From NCBI RefSeq assembly GCF_001642725.1, contig NZ_LSUQ01000022.1:1-41736 (forward strand): a stretch of 41,736 nucleotides of DNA. The letters run 5' to 3'. This stretch comes from Ferroacidibacillus organovorans (lineage in GTDB: Bacteria > Bacillota > Bacilli > Alicyclobacillales > SLC66). Position 1 is the stretch's first letter. The number at the start of each line of letters is the position of its first letter. Of this stretch, positions 1 to 30,000 are shown piece after piece. A program made the position numbers.

Positions 1-3000
1 GGCGTATCTGGACGCGGGATGCCGCAAACTCTATCTCTCTATGTTTTTCCTCTTTGCGGCAGGACACGTCAAACACGACATTCCATCTTCACTCCATCCG
101 CTGGTTACGCGCTACGGTGACGCTTCATTCTACATCGGGCCACCTGCGGGAAACGCCGAAGGAATTCTACAGGCGGCGATTTCACGCGTGCAGGACGCAG
201 TGCGTGAACATCCTGCACACAGTGACGCGACGGTTCTTTTGGTGGTGCGCGGAAGCAGCGATCAGGCCGCATGGGCAGACGTATTGCAGGTTGCGCGCGC
301 GCTGTCAGACCGACTTTCGCGTCCTGTGCTCCCGTGCGCGGTGGTCGGAGTGGGTCTCAGATTCAAGGATGCATTGTGCTTCGCTCGCAAAGCGATCATC
401 GTTCTCCCCTATCTCCTTTTCACAGGCAATGTCTTGCGCGAGATTCACGAGCTGTGTATTGCCGTACAGCGGGAGGGACGCATGCTCACGTGTACCAGTC
501 CTTTAGGTGGGCATCCGTTTGTTGAAGATTATTTCTATCAGCAGGCTACTTATCACGCAAATTTTGTGAAATACGCGATAGAATAGATGAATCAAAACGA
601 GTTTCGAAGGAGTGGGCCAATGTTTGAGATTGCAAGCGACAAGCTTGTCTATGCACTGAGCCAGAATCATGCGCCTGTTGCGCGCGTCACAAACGGGGAG
701 ACGGTCGTCTTTCACACGTGTGACTGTTTTCAAAACCAGATCACGCACGAAGAGCAAGAATTTGGAACGCTCGACTGGGAGCGCATCAACCCGGCGACAG
801 GTCCGCTGTTCATTGAAGGCGCTGATCCGGGTGACACGCTGGCTGTCGAGATCCTATCCATTGACGTAGCCGAGCAAGGTGTGATGACCACAGGTCCAAA
901 CCTCGGCGTGCTCGGAGACGAACTCGCTGAGAACGTGATTCGCATGGTGCCCATTCGCGACGGTGTGGCGCATTTTTCATCTTCGCTGCGCATCCCGCTC
1001 TCTCCAATGATTGGGGTCATCGGCACCGCGCCTGCCGGCGCGGACGTCTCGTGTGGAACGCCCGGCGACCACGGTGGAAATATGGACTGCACAAAGATTC
1101 GCGCTGGCGCAACGCTTTTGCTGCCGGTAAACGTGCCGGGAGCACTGCTCGCGATGGGTGATCTTCACGCGGCGATGGCTGATGGAGAGGTGGCCGTCTG
1201 CGGCATTGAGATCGCGGGGAAGGTAACCGTTCGGCTGCATGTGATCAAGGGCAAGACGTGGAAACTGCCGATGCTGATTGATGCGGAGCATGTGATCGCG
1301 ATTGCGTCAGAGGAGCGCCTCGATGAGGCGGCGGAACGCGCGACGAAAAACATGGTGGATTTTCTCGAAGGCTCCTGTGGAATGGAACGCGCGGAAGCGG
1401 TGCTGTTGCTGAGCGCTGCGGGGAGTTTGCGGATCTGTCAAGTGGTCGACCCGAAAAAGACGGCGCGTATGGAATTGCCGCGCGTGTATGCAGAGCAACT
1501 CGGGTTTTCGTTTGCGAACGCGTAGGTCATAGATCAGCATGTGCTTTTCATAGGGTAAAAGGGTAACGGTTGGTTTTCGCCGTTACTCTTTTTTCATATG
1601 AGGGGGAAGTGTGATGGTAAACGAGAATCGCTTGACGCAAAAGGAGGATGAGGTGCGGAGTGAGGAAGCCTGCGCGAGGTTTCTGCGAGCGGAACAGTTT
1701 CGGGCGCGCTTTCGTGTGGAAGAGCAAAGCGGCGAGGCATCTCTTCAAGCGTTGCTTGAGTTACGCTTACAGCGAATCGTCGAAACGTGGCCTGCTGAGG
1801 AGGATTTGCGCGTGTAGTTAATGGTTGCAAAACGTTGGGGATGTGAACACGGCGGGAGGGAGACGCGGATGCGCTGTGCGATCTATGCGCGGGTTTCGAC
1901 CGATCGACAAGGCGAGTCTGTTGACCATCAGGTTTCGCTCCTGCGCGAGTTTGCCAAACGTCGGGGGCAGGACTGGGAGGTTTTGGAGCATCTCGTTTTT
2001 GAGGATGAGGGGGTTTCGGCGACAAAGGTTTCCATTTGGACGAGACCTGCAATGAAGCGACTGATGGAGGCGGCGGAGCGGTCGGAAGTGGATGTTGTCT
2101 TGTTTAAGGGCATCTCACGTCTGGCGCGCAATACGCAAGAGGCGCTCGACGTCCTTGACCGTTTGCGCGCGCGCGGCTTGCGCGTGCTCTCTTACGAGGA
2201 GAGCTACGATTCGGCGAAGGAGAATTCGAACTTCATGTTCACGATGCACGCGGCCATCGCTGAGTATGAGGCAGAGAAGATCGGTGTGCGCGTGCGGCTT
2301 GGCAATAAAGAGAAGGCGAAATCAGGTCGCTGGGTGGGAGGGACACCTCCTGACGGCTACTACGTTGGGCGGGATGGTCATCTGGTGCCTGATGATGCGC
2401 GCGCGGGACTCATCCGTTCGATCTTTGAGCGCTATGCGTTGGATGGGTCATCGTGCGCCGCAATCGCTCGGGAACTGAATGCGCGCGGCGAGACAACGTC
2501 GACCGGGAATGGCTTCTCACAGACAGCGGTTGCGAGAATTCTTGACAACGAGGTGTACGCTGGACACTTGGTTTACAATCGGCGAACGGATCGCACCGTT
2601 CGCGATTACGACAGTGAGGTGCCCGGCAAGAAGAAAGAGCGGCGAATGCCGAATGTGCGGACAGAGTGGGTAGTGGTACACTGCGCTCATCCACCGTTGG
2701 TAACGCCGGATCTTGTGCAAATGGCACAAATGCGCCGCGGCCGTGTGCGCAGCCAAGCGCCGCGCACAACGCATTTGCTGACAGGAGTCCTCTCTTGCGG
2801 GCGCTGCCGCGCACCCTTGATCGCGCAGGTCAAACGCACGGCAAAGCGGGTCTATCGCTATTATGTCTGCCGCACGTACCACCAAGCGGGGAGGCAGGCG
2901 TGCGCGCAAGGAAGTGTCCCTGCGGATGATCTTGAGTCCTATGTGCTGACGCGCTTGTCTGAGCGCTTGCGCGAGGTGAGCATCAACGTGCTTGCACCCG

Positions 3001-27000: not shown

Positions 27001-30000
27001 TGTGCGGCAAACGCTTGAGGATGCATCAACGATTGGCGCCATTCTTCTTGCAGCCGATACGGCTGAATTCGCACAGTCACTAAAGCGGTGTGAACGGTCT
27101 GAGAAGATGGACCCCGAAGAAGAAATGGAAGAAGTGCAGCGTCTCCGATTTAAAGAGTATCAGAGACTGTGCCGTCTCCTCTATCCAAGCGCGTAGATTC
27201 GCTTTTGATCAACTCGGACGGAAGGATCTTGAGATGCGCCTCATCGGGTTGTTCATAGCCATCCTTGAATTGCTGAAGGAGGAGGTTTGCGACCCACGCT
27301 CCCATCTCAGGCACCGGCTGTCGAACGCACGTGAGCGAAGGGGAGATCAGTTTGATCCAATCGGGCTCATCGAATGTGGCCAATCCCAGTTTCTCTGGAG
27401 ACGGCCAATCGATTTGCTGTACGTGAGGATAGATTTCATGGAAAATCAACGCATTGGCTGTATAGAGTGCGATCGGTCTTTTCGAAATGTTTTCCTTTAT
27501 ACGCTCAACGACCGATTGCATGGAGACGTCATCCCCGCGTTTCACGATCTCCACGTGAGGAGTGCGATGATAGCGAGATGAACTGTCGAGATAACCCTGC
27601 AGGCGCTCGCTGCGCGTCGAAATGGCATTTGGGGTTTCTGTCACATAAAATACGTTCTGATATCCTTCTGCGTATAAATGGTTCGTCATTTTCATGGATG
27701 CCTCATAATTGTCCGTCAGTACATTTGTGGCGTGCGGGAGCTTGAATTTGCGATCAACGAGAATGACAGGCACTGATTTTGAGATCGTCTCCAGTTCTGT
27801 GAGATTGTCCCCGTTGGTTTGAATCACAATCGCATCGATTTGTTGACCGAGCAGCGTTTTTAGTACATGTGCTTCACGTTTTGGATCTCCCTCTGTTTCA
27901 CAGACGATGACGTTATACCCCTCAGGGGTAAGCGCATTGGAGAGGGAGCGAATGAGGGACACACAAAAAGGATAGCTCAACTTTACGACGATCACTGCAA
28001 TCATTCGACTGCGATTTCCCTTTAATCCTTGTGCGAGTGCATTCGGGTGATAATCCAGTTCTTCAATCACTTGCTCAATTCGCTTTTTTGTCTCTTGGCT
28101 CATCGCCTCATAGCGCGCGTTTAGAAAACGGGAAATGGTCGTGACAGATACGTTTGCTTCGCGGGCAACGTCCTGAATCGTGATTCGTTTCGCTGTCATT
28201 TTGTACGCTCCCCAAAATCCATTCGATGTATGTTCATCAAAGTATGTTCATCAAATATGACGAAGATAGACGGTAACATGGCGCTCCCGCGCCACCGTCT
28301 ACGGGAAAAATAAATCGCTGCGCCGTTATTTCGAGATAGACGTGCCTATTCTCGTGTTGCGCTATCTGATTTTACCACGAAGTGAATTTGAATCAGAAGA
28401 AAATCGGATCGATCGCAAAAAAGCATCTTTACGAAACGAAGGCTGGGCGACGTATTGGCACTTAAGGATCATGAGGGAACTCGAACTGACAGACGGTGAG
28501 TCACTCGATTTTGCGCGTACACACTCGGGAGTAGTTCTTCCCTCAAAAACATCGGTGAATCCTTACTTGATTGGACTGAAGATTTGGGAAGACATCGAGA
28601 AGCGCTATGATCATCCGACAGAGGAGATGAAAAAACGATTCGGCGCTCGCGCTGGTCAAGGACGCGAAAAAATGTTTGAAGTTAGGGAGATGGAATCAGA
28701 CACCTCCTTTATTCGAAACTATCTGACGGAGGAACTGGTCAGGGAACTCGATCTCTATCTCTATCAAAAGGTCGGAAATGAGTGGCGAATTGTTGAGACA
28801 GACTGGGAAAAGGTTCGCGACAAGATTTGGAAATCGAGGACAAACGGCGGATATCCGCTTCTTCATGTGGTAGACGGTGACTATCAACTCACGGGAGAAC
28901 TGTATTTGGTACACGCGTACGAAGGGAATGAGTTGGACGTGAAGTACACCGAAAAAACGCTGCCATCCGTCTATAAGCTGTGGGGGCGAACGGTTCACGT
29001 AGAGAGCGTCCTGGAAGGAAGAGCGGTCGTCTTTTCGTATGACGGACGAAAAACGACAAGAAAGTTTCTCTGAAGTGGCCCTGAATTTGACCTGACCACC
29101 TCAAAAAAGAGTGAGCGGGAATTCGTCGATTGCATTTTGCAAAACGGTTTGGCGCCTTGTCGATAAGGCGCCTTTTTTATGGATTCAAGCTGATCTTTAC
29201 AAAGTCTTCAAGAGACCGCTGTAAAGGATTAACACAGCCGCTCTATGATGATGTTAAATCATGGGTGTTTTGTGGAGGAAGCTTTCGATGAATCGAATTC
29301 TATTTGCAGACCGAGATGAAAGATTCTACACTAAATTGAATTTTGCGCTTCATGAGGCAGGGTTTTCAACCGAATTTTCAAGCGACGGCGAAGACGCATT
29401 CGGGCGTATGATGGTTGATCGGACGCGCTTTGACGTGCTCGTGATCGATAGCAATTTGCCGAGCATGAACGGCATCGAACTTTTAAAACGCGTGCGTACG
29501 GCGCGTCTTCACGTGCCGATTTTGATGTTAAACGAGATGGATGACGCAATGGAACGCATTCTTTCGCTCGAACTCGGTGCAGATGATTGTGTGACGAAAC
29601 CTGTGCATGTCCGCGAGTTGGTATTGCGGATACAAGCTTTGAGCCAGTGTCGCAATCGCGTGAATCCGCCTTTTGCGGTGCAGAGTGGTGAATTGCGACT
29701 GGGTAATATGAGACTGCGCGTCGAAGAGCGGGAATGTTTCATCGATCGCTACGAGATAGGTCTCACACCTGTGCAAGTCCAAGTGCTGAAAGCGCTTTTT
29801 CAAAAACCGGGATCTGTGGTGTTGCGCGAAGCGTTGATGCACGCAGCGTGGGGGAAAATTGTGCATCACCACTTGCTGGCGATGCAGATCTCTTTGCTTC
29901 GGCAAAAGTTTGACACGGTGACTACGCGGTCGCACGAGATTGAAACGGTGCATCATCGCGGGTACCGTCTCGCCAAAATTACCCCTTCAGATGAAAAAAG

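Follow-up and report, generated by a model that had tools for sequence, protein, structure and literature searches.

Ferroacidibacillus organovorans is an acid-loving spore-former, and prkA, yhbH and spoVR are neighbouring spore-maturation genes. The question raised by their operon is how the three genes can be used when the chromosome carries them as eight in-frame pieces, which in this assembly are spread over contigs C43, C91 and C22 (C22 is the window, the whole stretch of 41,736 nucleotides that was analysed). The pieces are parted at five attachment sites, P1 in prkA, Y1 and Y2 in yhbH, and R1 and R2 in spoVR, by six elements, each of which has a junction-adjacent large serine recombinase (LSR) gene, and the genes would be workable only if all of the elements are cut out precisely. 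We consider it likely that these are developmentally excised site-specific elements and that the pieces are rejoined in the course of sporulation, most probably in the mother cell, which would restore all three genes.

The pieces were mapped by Pfam and whole-genome HMM searches. The PrkA profile is matched over 2-279 on C43, and C91 supplies 269-356 together with the entire C-terminal domain; the DUF444/YhbH profile over 7-182 and 223-259 on C91 and over 256-381 at C22:3376-3750; and the SpoVR profile over 3-62, 53-270 and 260-405 at C22:7825-8004, 14965-15627 and 28423-28848. On the intact proteins of the relative G003 (tblastn), the pieces follow one another directly and overlap by a few residues, in agreement with the eight placements given in a preliminary description of this region. 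When joined by script at the short core repeats, they give frames of 632 aa (PrkA), 396 aa (YhbH) and 480 aa (SpoVR) that contain no internal stop and share 84%, 72% and 70% identity with the G003 proteins. This bears out the three restored frames claimed earlier; YhbH is longer than the previous 385 aa only because GTG at C91:2613 was chosen as the start. The core repeats are exact at Y2 (11 nt), R1 (8 nt) and R2 (14 nt), and shorter and imperfect at P1 and Y1. The six recombinase genes already noted in the inserts were all recovered, four in the window and two on C43. The prkA insert consists of two elements in tandem, the second inserted into attL of the first, so that the five sites first described stand and the number of elements rises from five to six.

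Features of the interrupted operon (positions on C22 unless another contig is named)
Feature	Position	Strand	Basis
Element 2, right part, at yhbH site Y1	1..3378		Pfam; collinear with 7.2-kb G001 insert
Element 2, left part	C91:3317-7180		
Element 2 cargo, CbiX	2-586		Pfam
Element 2 cargo, formamidase-like gene	587-1525		Pfam
LSR of element 2 (Y1 clade)	1821..3392	+	Resolvase, Recombinase, Zn_ribbon_recom domains
yhbH middle piece	3379..3733	+	DUF444 profile 257-380; tblastn
Y2 core repeat, left copy GGTCAATCAAT	3723..3733		aligned with attB of relatives having intact site
Element 3, 3.9 kb, yhbH site Y2	3734..7662		between two core copies; present in G001
LSR of element 3 (Y2 clade)	3776..5341	-	Pfam
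Element 3 cargo, 646-aa membrane protein, AA_permease_2	5430..7370	+	Pfam
66-aa ORF at right end of element 3, strong ribosome-binding site	7497..7697	+	sequence
Y2 core repeat, right copy	7663..7673		core-repeat comparison
yhbH C-terminal piece, 47 aa	7674..7816	+	tblastn (match 7658-7798)
spoVR N-terminal piece	7813..7991	+	profile 3-62; tblastn
R1 core repeat, left copy TTTGGTAA	7984..7991		core-repeat comparison
Element 4, 7.0 kb, spoVR site R1	7992..14973		absent from G001
LSR of element 4 (R1 clade)	8019..9533	-	Pfam
Element 4 cargo	10089..14850	-	Pfam
R1 core repeat, right copy	14974..14981		core-repeat comparison
spoVR middle piece	14982..15620	+	profile 53-270; tblastn
R2 core repeat, left copy AACGAAGGCTGGGC	15607..15620		core-repeat comparison
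Element 5, 12.8 kb, spoVR site R2	15621..28434		common to this genome and G001
Element 5 cargo, DinB	15756-16274		Pfam
76-aa ORF of element 5, upstream of LSR, divergent	16322..16549	-	
LSR of element 5 (R2 clade)	16789..18309	+	Pfam
Element 5 cargo, further genes	18339..28199		Pfam
R2 core repeat, right copy	28435..28448		core-repeat comparison
spoVR C-terminal piece	28449..29073	+	profile 260-405 and SpoVR_C; tblastn
LSR	C43:6919-8562		Pfam
LSR	C43:11181-13193		Pfam

The assembly is in 98 contigs and two inserts span contig ends, which could indicate an assembly or binning artefact that produced chimeric contigs of unrelated DNA. The probability of this is negligible. C43, C91 and C22 are collinear on a single contig of the sibling genome G001, where about 58 and 20 bp separate them (blastn), and that contig carries four of the five splits, as had been noted before. 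Its R1 site is empty and agrees with the predicted join. Four independent runs, drawn from three studies, also yielded contigs that cross junctions; among the metagenome contigs, X5 record 2 and X6 record 9 bridge Y2-left, Y2-right and R1-left, X5 record 5 bridges R1-right and X8 record 29 bridges R2-left. For the junctions bridged in this way the artefact is refuted, and the same junction sequences recur in many relatives.

The only assembled form of the chromosome is the interrupted one, and the joined form was not seen, as would be expected if mobile elements had disrupted all three genes and never been removed, the genes or sporulation itself being no longer needed. Dead genes are expected to drift towards a dN/dS of 1 and to gain stops. 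Instead, six pieces compared with G001, with which four splits are held in common, have dN/dS values of 0.015-0.030 at dS 0.6-1.5 (yhbH middle piece, 0.030; yhbH C-terminal piece, 0.026; spoVR C-terminal piece, 0.020), with neither a stop nor a frameshift. Other split genomes give similarly low values, 0.018-0.043 between G004 and G016 and 0.07-0.12 between G002 and G010, and the five sites recur with intact cores across several genera. Such strong purifying selection on the pieces means that the genes still function and must be rejoined; permanent inactivation conflicts with these dN/dS values and is very improbable. The elements are constrained as well: the four LSRs shared with G001 have dN/dS values of 0.10-0.22 (element 2, 0.14) and 12 cargo genes have values of 0.02-0.13.

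Each site has its own recombinase lineage. A tree of 40 LSRs from inserts of 22 related genomes resolves into one clade per site (Y2, 15; Y1, 7; R2, 6; P1, 6; R1, 5; P2, 1), with supports of 99-100 by ultrafast bootstrap and 97-100 by SH-aLRT (Y1, 100/98; R1, 100/100; R2, 100/99). The site labels change five times on the tree, the minimum possible, and none of 200 label shuffles reached so low a number. LSR orientation relative to the operon is constant within each of the Y1, Y2, R1 and R2 clades, and the LSR adjoins the same junction throughout Y1, Y2 and R1; the neighbouring junction differs between two subclades of R2, and both junction and orientation vary in P1. The LSR of element 3 is antiparallel to yhbH and adjoins the upstream piece, as do all 15 LSRs of its clade, and the final codons of the element 2 LSR extend over the junction into yhbH sequence. 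Among 41 genomes (this one and 40 relatives), 37 to 40 of which have a match per gene family, P1 is occupied in 6, Y1 in 7, Y2 in 15, R1 in 5 and R2 in 8.

Of 10 other Bacilli genomes examined, 7 have spoVR split at the R2 position (profile 259-272). R2-type LSRs with 54-62% identity were found in four of five other Bacilli genomes tested; in G131 and G089 they lie between the two spoVR pieces, and in G080 and G292 they share a contig with one piece, at a distance of 4-8 kb. R1, the second spoVR site, was seen only in this order among the genomes examined. Four genomes from three other Bacilli families have their prkA interrupted at the same position, with a related LSR within the insert, and in all four genomes with mapped pieces the best P1-type LSR match lies between the prkA pieces or within 500 bp of them, which indicates that prkA is a natural and widespread target. 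A literature search for prkA as an element target likewise found no paper. For yhbH the same claim fails, as a passage of a preprint citing Abe et al. 2013 lists cotJC, gerE, yaaH and yhbH as integration loci.

For the outside relatives of the Y2 LSR, we inspected the ORFs just past the 3' end at 44 loci: 20 encode only the N-half of a sigma factor (Sigma70_r2), three encode DpaA or a truncated SpoVFB-type flavoprotein, and three a CotJB or CotJC piece. Judged by these contexts, the nearest outside relatives lie beside truncated sigK, spoVFB and cotJ, the classic skin-type arrangement.

The elements carry metabolic genes. Element 2 encodes PAPS reductase, ATP sulfurylase and sulfite reductase in its C91 part (Pfam). 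The 646-aa AA_permease_2 protein of element 3 has a dN/dS of 0.022 against G001. Element 4, with a G+C content of 0.44-0.52, lower than the genome mean of 0.52, carries an ornithine cyclodeaminase-like gene, a truncated APH-like fragment, a GNAT gene, a pseudouridine-5'-phosphate glycosidase (Indigoidine_A) and a PfkB kinase with an HTH domain. The further genes of element 5 encode a terpene synthase, a squalene-hopene-cyclase-like protein, a GGDEF-HD protein, a polyprenyl synthetase, an MFS transporter, an FGGY kinase and a LacI-type regulator (dN/dS of element 5 cargo against G001, 0.03-0.13). When 38 element ORFs were compared with PHROGs there was no capsid, terminase or lysis match, and the sole structural-category match besides the LSRs was a weak one of a GH18 protein to a "minor tail protein" family. 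By this sequence content they are non-phage integrative elements.

The attP sites derived from the element ends for R1, R2 and Y2 are symmetric at 16, 14 and 13 of 22 positions, a level reached in 0, 2 and 12 of 300 shuffles, respectively; the attB sites, unlike these, are without dyad symmetry. Excision by such enzymes probably needs a small directionality factor encoded by the element. A 76-aa ORF adjacent to the LSR is found in all six R2 elements, and Pfam, PHROG and PDB fold searches with it gave no match. In complex prediction with LSR residues 150-506 it scored 0.73 (best control, 0.00), a value that expresses model confidence only and was obtained with custom six-row alignments; the score mark used is attained by 116 of 157 solved complexes and 2 of 215 mismatched pairs. 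At least 74% of the contacts agree between runs, with a partner pLDDT of at least 77, and the predicted interface (LSR residues 346-369 and 436-486) lies directly after the zinc-ribbon domain (residues 294-351). This predicted binding makes the ORF a candidate recombination directionality factor. In element 3, the 66-aa ORF crosses the Y2 junction out of frame with yhbH; it is 70% identical in G001, was not found in the other regions compared, including other Y2 elements, has no PHROG match, and might tentatively be proposed as an accessory factor. No conserved small ORF was found in the Y1, R1 and P1 elements.

We therefore favour developmental excision. The operon would be kept in the inherited chromosome as eight pieces parted by six elements, and the LSR that each element encodes belongs to a lineage specific for the site in question. 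As the cell sporulates, and most probably in its mother-cell compartment, every LSR would recombine its own attL and attR at the short core, releasing the element as a circle and restoring the reading frame, so that PrkA, YhbH and SpoVR could be made. The forespore would retain all elements with their working cargo genes, and the arrangement would thus be inherited. PMC517825 includes yhbH in its mother-cell genes of B. subtilis. The site-specific LSRs at the element ends, the in-frame joins and the very low dN/dS of the pieces give indirect support to the skin-type excision proposed in the preliminary description. What is observed is the anatomy, the cores, the restored frames, the one LSR clade per site and the purifying selection on pieces, LSRs and cargo; that excision takes place, when and in which cell it does so, and which ORFs serve as directionality factors are inferred. 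As general background, sigmaE controls prkA and spoVR in B. subtilis, and it is in that species, and not in the order studied here, that all three genes are known to be expressed specifically in the mother cell.

An unlikely but not trivial alternative is that these are ordinary mobile elements whose sites happen to lie in the three genes, and that they excise sporadically or in response to stress in cells of every kind, outside a developmental programme; the operon would then be a population on/off switch or be restored only in a fraction of cells. Public runs were available as assembled contigs (20 runs listed); in four of them no contig joined across Y2 or R1, and no excised junction or circle was seen. 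A search upstream of the 40 LSR genes for the B. subtilis sigmaE/sigmaK consensus found the -10 motif in 1 of 40, against 1.7 expected from shuffles, and thus no enrichment. Element 4 is missing from G001, and in the independent metagenomes X8 and X6, whose strains are about 99.5% identical over its flanks, its contig depth is 27.6-11.6 against about 245 and 4-6 against 13.3, respectively, while elements 2, 3 and 5 keep flank depth. This looks like strain polymorphism, and means that at least one element moves, or recently moved, in the germline, beyond mother cells. The R1 insert of G022, about 135 kb with an ImmA/ImmR-like module and an exonuclease adjoining its LSR, resembles an active prophage or ICE, and the insertion of one prkA element into attL of another also speaks for mobility. 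However, elements 1b, 2, 3 and 5 are collinear in this genome and G001 at dS 0.4-1.5, which implies long vertical residence, and the constraint on the pieces equals that on intact genes, which requires that restoration be reliable at each sporulation and not sporadic. The closest LSR relatives, moreover, occupy sigK and spoVFB arrangements, systems described as mother-cell specific in passages of PMC4191935 and PMC5595907. Germline mobility and developmental excision are in any case compatible, and SPbeta combines both, according to PMC4191935.

Skin is the element in sigK (B. subtilis, with the recombinase SpoIVCA, and also C. difficile), and vfbin is the element in spoVFB of B. weihenstephanensis. 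As in these, a mother-cell sporulation gene is broken by an element with an LSR of its own, which adjoins the upstream piece in opposite orientation, and a short core repeat at the junctions allows precise in-frame excision, here inferred; the likeness extends to the sigK and spoVFB contexts of the Y2 LSR relatives. The differences are the targets, prkA, yhbH and spoVR, the six elements in one operon and their lack of phage genes. The known spoVR element had been assigned to B. weihenstephanensis, as PMC6957869 names it; spoVR is indeed a published target, and the host of vrin in the passage of PMC4191935 citing Abe et al. 2013 is Geobacillus thermoglucosidasius C56-YS93. R2, in the same target gene, is probably the vrin-type site, and the second spoVR site, R1, distinguishes the present locus. 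Gin, the gene-intervening element that splits gerE in B. cereus ATCC 10987 (PMC5595907), is similar in being non-phage, in pairing serine recombinases with a small directionality factor encoded separately (GirC plus GirX) and in its core of about 9 bp, with the predicted cleavage dinucleotide at the core 3' end corresponding to the centre of symmetry in the R1 attP. In that case a single element with three recombinases interrupts one small gene, whereas here six elements with one recombinase each occupy five sites in three genes. In Calothrix sp. NIES-4101, multiple recombination events rebuild fragmented nif genes from 13 pieces (PMC11249958); there too, several elements lie in one operon needed only in a terminally differentiated cell, although the phylum and the type of differentiation are different, inversions are included and restoration was demonstrated experimentally. 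The kind of arrangement is thus already known from skin, vfbin, vrin and gin. The unusual density claimed at the outset is a new feature overall and is shared by relatives (G010 has five occupied sites and G002 five or six); the novelty lies in this density and in the set of site-specific LSR lineages within one operon.

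The genes prkA, yhbH and spoVR of Ferroacidibacillus organovorans (G000; an assembly of 3.03 Mb in 98 contigs, 52% G+C) are each broken inside the open reading frame, as seen in Pfam and genome-wide HMM searches and in tblastn, and their pieces lie on contigs C43, C91 and C22, the last of which is the window. With the intact proteins of a same-family genome (G003) as tblastn queries, all eight pieces fall end to end on the homologues, as the preliminary description had it. Comparison by blastn with one contig of a sibling genome of the same genus (G001) gives the order C43, C91, C22, with gaps of ~58 and ~20 bp; the inserts at sites P1 (prkA), Y1 and Y2 (yhbH) and R2 (spoVR) are common to the two genomes, and the R1 site (spoVR) is empty in G001. 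The layout is not an assembly artefact, because four independent metagenome runs, drawn from three studies, have contigs that bridge the junctions. The split operon is a real feature.

In silico joining of prkA, yhbH and spoVR at the core repeats gives full-length frames of 632, 396 and 480 aa, respectively, without internal stops. Within the window the joins are 3733>7674, 7991>14982 and 15620>28449; the other two connect different contigs. For yhbH the open frame reported earlier stands; its length is 396 aa instead of 385 aa because the GTG at C91:2613 was taken as the start. The join predicted for R1 in G000 is identical to the empty R1 site of G001. No joined form across Y2 or R1 was present among the contigs of the public metagenome runs examined. 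A loose end at 15620 in one of these runs (X5) was considered as a joined spoVR and rejected; it resembles the intact spoVR of another organism.

Gene pieces and intervening elements of the prkA-yhbH-spoVR operon of G000, with occupancy of each site among 41 genomes (G000 and 40 relatives, from two families; G numbers denote genomes). Positions without a contig name are in the window; cargo is assigned from Pfam domains.
Feature	Site (gene)	Position	Content or evidence	Genomes with site occupied	Remark
PrkA, two pieces	prkA	C43; C91	HMM
DUF444/YhbH, three pieces	yhbH	N-terminal on C91; middle C22:3376-3750; 47-aa tail ~7658-7798	HMM, tblastn
SpoVR, three pieces	spoVR	C22; profile 3-62, 53-270, 260-405	HMM
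Elements 1a + 1b	P1 (prkA)	C43:4806 to C91:~1545	tandem pair	6: G000, G001, G006, G011, G030, G032	G014 match stops at contig end
Element 2	Y1 (yhbH)	C91:3317-7180 + window 1-3378	PAPS reductase, ATP sulfurylase, sulfite reductase, CbiX, formamidase, LSR	7: G000, G001, G009, G010, G036, G037, G039	G005 probable
Element 3	Y2 (yhbH)	3734-7662	LSR, 646-aa membrane protein	15
Element 4	R1 (spoVR)	7992-14973	LSR, ornithine-cyclodeaminase-like gene, GNAT, pseudouridine glycosidase + kinase	5: G000, G002, G010, G018, G022	G015, G019 broken at contig ends
Element 5	R2 (spoVR)	15621-28434	DinB, 76-aa ORF, LSR, terpenoid genes, GGDEF-HD protein, transporters, sugar kinase, LacI regulator	8: G000, G001, G002, G006, G010, G012, G016, G018

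The flanks of the inserts align with the uninterrupted coding sequence of relatives as far as the core and then diverge. The element junctions (attL and attR) share a short core flanked by imperfect inverted repeats. Cores span 5-14 nt; the repeats are exact at Y2 (11 nt), R1 (8 nt) and R2 (14 nt), and shorter and imperfect at P1 and Y1. The circle site (attP) deduced from the element ends is dyad-symmetric at R1, R2 and Y2, with the symmetry centre in the 3' half of the core; at Y1 its symmetry is not significant. The uninterrupted site (attB) has no symmetry beyond chance.

Five intervening elements had been described originally; there are six at five sites, P1 holding a tandem pair. Each of the six possesses its own large serine recombinase (LSR), 0-1.2 kb from the nearest junction. 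By Pfam, Resolvase, Recombinase and zinc beta-ribbon domains are present in the four LSRs of the window and in the LSR at C43:11181-13193; the LSR at C43:6919-8562 has Resolvase and Recombinase matches only. By blastn, G001 lacks a 3.8-kb segment (C43:4806-8590) that encodes a GH18 protein and an LSR; this segment is flanked by a 20-nt repeat, CCGCCGATGAAGTGGTGGTT, which lies at the tandem junction; the sequence 3' of the second copy matches the attL of G001. In the recombinase tree the two prkA LSRs are both in the P1 clade, in separate subclades. A second P1-type element has thus landed in the attL of the first.

Two details of these elements concern their internal structure. Element 1b contains a nested insertion sequence, a DDE transposase segment (locus L051 on C43, 16022-19698) that is absent from G001. 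The LSR open reading frame of element 2 crosses the Y1 junction (window 3378-3392), so that its last codons and stop are yhbH sequence, and the same overlap is found in G001, G009 and G010; excision of element 2 would alter the C-terminus of this recombinase.

Among 38 element ORFs compared with PHROGs the six LSRs are assigned to 'integrase' and the GH18 protein has a weak match to a 'minor tail protein' family. The latter is the sole match in a structural category; the remaining assignments are to AMG, regulator, acetyltransferase or function not known, and no capsid, terminase or lysis gene was matched. By this lack of phage genes the elements are not prophages, intact or defective. The Pfam and PHROG scans of the G000 element ORFs matched no ImmA/ImmR-type module, though no search was aimed at one. 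No Rfam family reached threshold in window 1-30000 or 29000-41736.

Each insertion site has its own recombinase lineage. The operon region was taken from 30 genomes, and all 40 insert LSR genes, found in 22 of them, were placed in a maximum-likelihood tree in which each site forms one clade (15 LSRs at Y2, seven at Y1, six each at R2 and P1, five at R1 and one at P2, an additional prkA site), with supports of 99-100 and 97-100. Site labels change five times on the tree, the minimum possible, and as few changes occurred in 0 of 200 shuffles, a result that measures clustering and not independent events, since kin share labels. There are two superclades, one of Y1, R1 and R2 and the other of P1, P2 and Y2. 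Orientation of the LSR with respect to the operon is uniform within the Y1, Y2, R1 and R2 clades, and the LSR adjoins the same junction throughout the Y1, Y2 and R1 clades; the neighbouring junction differs between R2 subclades, and orientation differs between P1 subclades. Identity of the Y2 LSRs is correlated with that of the host YhbH proteins (Mantel rho 0.42, reached in 10 of 2000 permutations), which suggests, as a trend short of proof, that the Y2 recombinase may be partly of vertical descent.

The G000 genome encodes ~18 LSR-like ORFs in 3.0 Mb, six of them in the prkA-yhbH-spoVR operon. The others adjoin a relaxase, toxin-antitoxin pairs, a SIR2-like gene and a tyrosine integrase. A sigma-factor gene outside the window also seems to be split (G000:C17:34817-41664), into a region-2-only piece at 34817-35002(+) and a region-4-only ORF at 41206-41664(+), separated by a gap of ~6.2 kb that contains ABC-permease genes and an LSR (39551-41158, -). 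This insert may be a skin-like element in sigK.

Occupied sites recur in different combinations among the relatives, with five in G010 and five or six in G002. The P2 site, near PrkA residue 530, contains a 2.8-kb LSR element in G002 (loci L035/L036) and is split too in G010 (L037/L038). G002 and G235, the latter from another family, have prkA broken near profile position 121-126. LSRs of the Y2 type adjoin yhbH in Alicyclobacillus contaminans, A. tolerans, Sulfoacidibacillus thermotolerans and an Alicyclobacillaceae MAG; in all, an LSR adjoins yhbH in 12 of the best 80 loci, all 12 from those taxa or from Bacillota MAGs.

Some of the relatives have inserts of quite different size or content. 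The R1 insert of G022 (L055/L056, G022:C1:533137 to 668437) is ~135 kb long and resembles a large prophage or ICE, with genes for an ImmA-like metalloprotease, an HTH repressor and an exonuclease after its LSR. The Y2 elements of eight other genomes (for example L043 in G004, 2586-9482) encode class B penicillin-binding proteins and a Mur ligase; one of the penicillin-binding proteins has PASTA domains, and an MFS transporter is present in four of the eight.

Beyond the order, a sample of 401 genomes of the class was searched, with a SpoVR match in 264 and a PrkA match in 267. Ten of the 264 genomes were chosen for weak, multiple SpoVR matches: seven have the split at the R2 position (profile 259-272), two are unsplit and one is fragmented elsewhere. 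R2-type LSRs (54-62% identity) are encoded in four of the five genomes searched outside the order, between both spoVR pieces in G131 and G089, and on the same contig 4-8 kb from one piece in G080 and G292. In six genomes outside the order prkA looks split by score; among the five examined, four are split at profile 271-294, the P1 position, and one near profile 121-126. In all four P1-split genomes the best match to the LSR of element 1a (34-41% identity) is between the prkA pieces or <500 bp from them. Because the prkA and spoVR sites, each with its own LSR lineage, are common to several families of Bacilli, the associations are old. The prkA element of G143 (G143:C1:1270101-1273362) is minimal, with ~2.2 kb that contain a P1-type LSR gene and little more.

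Low dN/dS ratios indicate that the gene pieces, the recombinases and the cargo are all under maintaining selection. Between G000 and G001, dN/dS is 0.015-0.030 for each of the six gene pieces compared (dS 0.6-1.5), 0.10-0.22 for the four shared LSRs and 0.02-0.13 for 12 cargo genes; for the split genes elsewhere it is 0.018-0.043 (G004 versus G016) and 0.07-0.12 (G002 versus G010). Genes that are constrained and yet split in the inherited chromosome must be rejoined, and we infer from the sequences that precise excision would restore functional genes. In B. subtilis, prkA and spoVR are expressed in the mother cell. Among the mother-cell genes listed for that species is yhbH (PMC517825).

Element 4 differs from the rest. 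It is absent from G001 and has a lower G+C content (0.44-0.52) than the genome mean (0.52). By contig depth, which is a rough measure, element 4 stands at 27.6-11.6 versus ~245 in the flanks in metagenome run X8 and at 4-6 versus 13.3 in run X6, whereas elements 2, 3 and 5 have the depth of the flanks in both. Metagenome contigs break at 7977/7991 and 14974. The absence from G001, the G+C content and the depth fit germline mobility, in which strains that share ~99.5% identity over the flanks have recently acquired or lost element 4. One X8 contig has internal deletions at 10530-11175 and 11518-11770, around truncated APH-like fragments.

A candidate recombination directionality factor is present at R2. 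An ORF of 70-85 aa (76 aa in G000, window 16322-16549) is located just upstream of, and divergent from, the LSR gene in all six R2 elements. It has no Pfam or PHROG family match, and its structural model (pLDDT 84.6), a beta-hairpin and a long helix, matches nothing in the PDB at E <= 0.001. Complex prediction of the small protein with LSR residues 150-506 gives a score of 0.73 versus 0.00 for the best control; the mark used for this score is reached by 116 of 157 solved complexes and by 2 of 215 mismatched pairs, and is a rough guide here since the alignments were our own. At least 74% of contacts agree between runs, with a partner pLDDT of at least 77, and the predicted interface comprises LSR residues 346-369 and 436-486, immediately C-terminal to the zinc ribbon. 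For known directionality factors, the binding site is close to the base of the coiled coil. The models support binding of the small protein to its LSR, and it would thus be a candidate directionality factor. When small ORFs up to 900 nt from the LSRs were clustered, no such candidate emerged for Y1, R1 or P1, and the ORFs returned, that of R2 excepted, were rejected as mainly shadow frames of yhbH or LSR genes. Element 3 has a lineage-specific 66-aa ORF (window 7497-7697) otherwise found only in G001.

The 574 bp at window 16047-16620, which comprise the 76-aa ORF together with sequence 5' of the R2 LSR gene, are 98% identical between G000 and G001, versus 80-85% in the flanks, and dS of the 76-aa ORF is 0.02, versus 0.4-1.5 elsewhere. 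This near-identity could be due to recent exchange or to constraint at the DNA level. A scan of 15600-16900 for sigma-70 promoters and terminators did not exceed chance. A search for sporulation promoters in front of the 40 LSR genes, with B. subtilis consensus sequences, was negative: it gave 1, 0 and 0 matches for the sigmaE -10, the full sigmaE and the sigmaK promoter, respectively, where shuffled sequences gave 1.7, 0.13 and 0.4 and the reverse strand 5, 0 and 0.

The most far-reaching interpretation of these observations is a composite one that we judge unlikely to hold as a whole. The prkA-yhbH-spoVR operon of the Alicyclobacillales would be a dedicated landing pad with at least six resident LSR lineages (P1, P2, Y1, Y2, R1 and R2), and maturation of the spore would need as many as six excisions, mutually orthogonal and fired together within one cell. 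The elements would be germline-only carriers of a working cargo (genes of sulfate assimilation, of pseudouridine salvage, of terpenoids and of c-di-GMP, and in other genera those for penicillin-binding proteins and Mur ligases) that the mother cell deliberately eliminates. Were this doubtful combination true, programmed somatic genome elimination would serve as regulation, beyond the tolerance of parasitic DNA.

With the operon split as it is, the maturation of spores would rely on five or six separate, exact DNA rearrangements within one operon, and a further one, in a sigma-factor gene outside it, is likely. We found no described case of such multiple dependence in endospore formers in the literature. 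The PrkA/YhbH/SpoVR triad may be favoured as a target because no cell but the disposable mother cell requires it.

The operon offers recombinases that, as a natural set, have to act next to one another and not cross-react, with attL and attR readable from the genome. Orthogonal recombinase pairs are wanted for genome engineering, and at least one LSR here has a testable candidate directionality factor. Cultured relatives in public records hold subsets of the elements, which makes a bench test possible. In Sulfoacidibacillus thermotolerans Y002 (L075) and Alicyclobacillus contaminans DSM 17975 (L071) yhbH breaks off at Y2 beside an LSR of the Y2 type, and the latter strain is also split at P1; Alicyclobacillus tolerans BL-1 (L080) is split at Y2, and its yhbH match begins at the position of Y1. 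The system is of interest to both the sporulation and the recombinase fields.

This kind of element is already known, and spoVR is a published target. The preliminary description considered yhbH to be without an earlier report; a preprint, however, names yhbH with other genes as integration loci and refers to Abe et al. 2013 for them. Full-text searches gave no report of prkA as an integration target; the tables of Abe et al. 2013 may include yhbH and perhaps prkA, and that paper and its supplements may list more. Neither prkA nor yhbH nor spoVR is mentioned in recent papers on a yabG element (PMC10747680) and on an Alicyclobacillus sigK prophage (PMC13141910). No publication that we found describes six elements at five sites in a single operon, one clade per site, a tandem pair in one site, or the class-wide prkA-P1 and spoVR-R2 links.

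For skin, SPbeta, vfbin, vrin and gin, PMC4191935, PMC5595907 and PMC6957869 show excision that is sporulation-specific and confined to the mother cell. A relation to such elements can be seen in the genomic context of more distant homologs of the Y2 LSR (35-44% identity), for which 59 ORFs just past the 3' end were scanned at 44 loci; the scan omitted 24 further loci, including 15 of the Bacillus cereus group and Gottfriedia with the candidate-ORF layout of loci L106 and L139. At 20 of the 44 loci the neighbor is an ORF whose sole sigma-70 domain is region 2; it is the N-half of a split sigma factor, which is the arrangement of skin. DpaA or a truncated SpoVFB-type flavoprotein, the context of vfbin, is found at three, CotJB or a piece of CotJC at three and a D-Ala-D-Ala carboxypeptidase at two. 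The split sigma-factor, spoVFB and cotJ neighbors place the Y2 lineage in a recombinase family seated in mother-cell genes, and judged by this context the Y2 LSR may be close to SpoIVCA-like recombinases. In density of interruption, the closest published parallel is the fragmented nif operon of Calothrix, a heterocystous cyanobacterium (PMC11249958).
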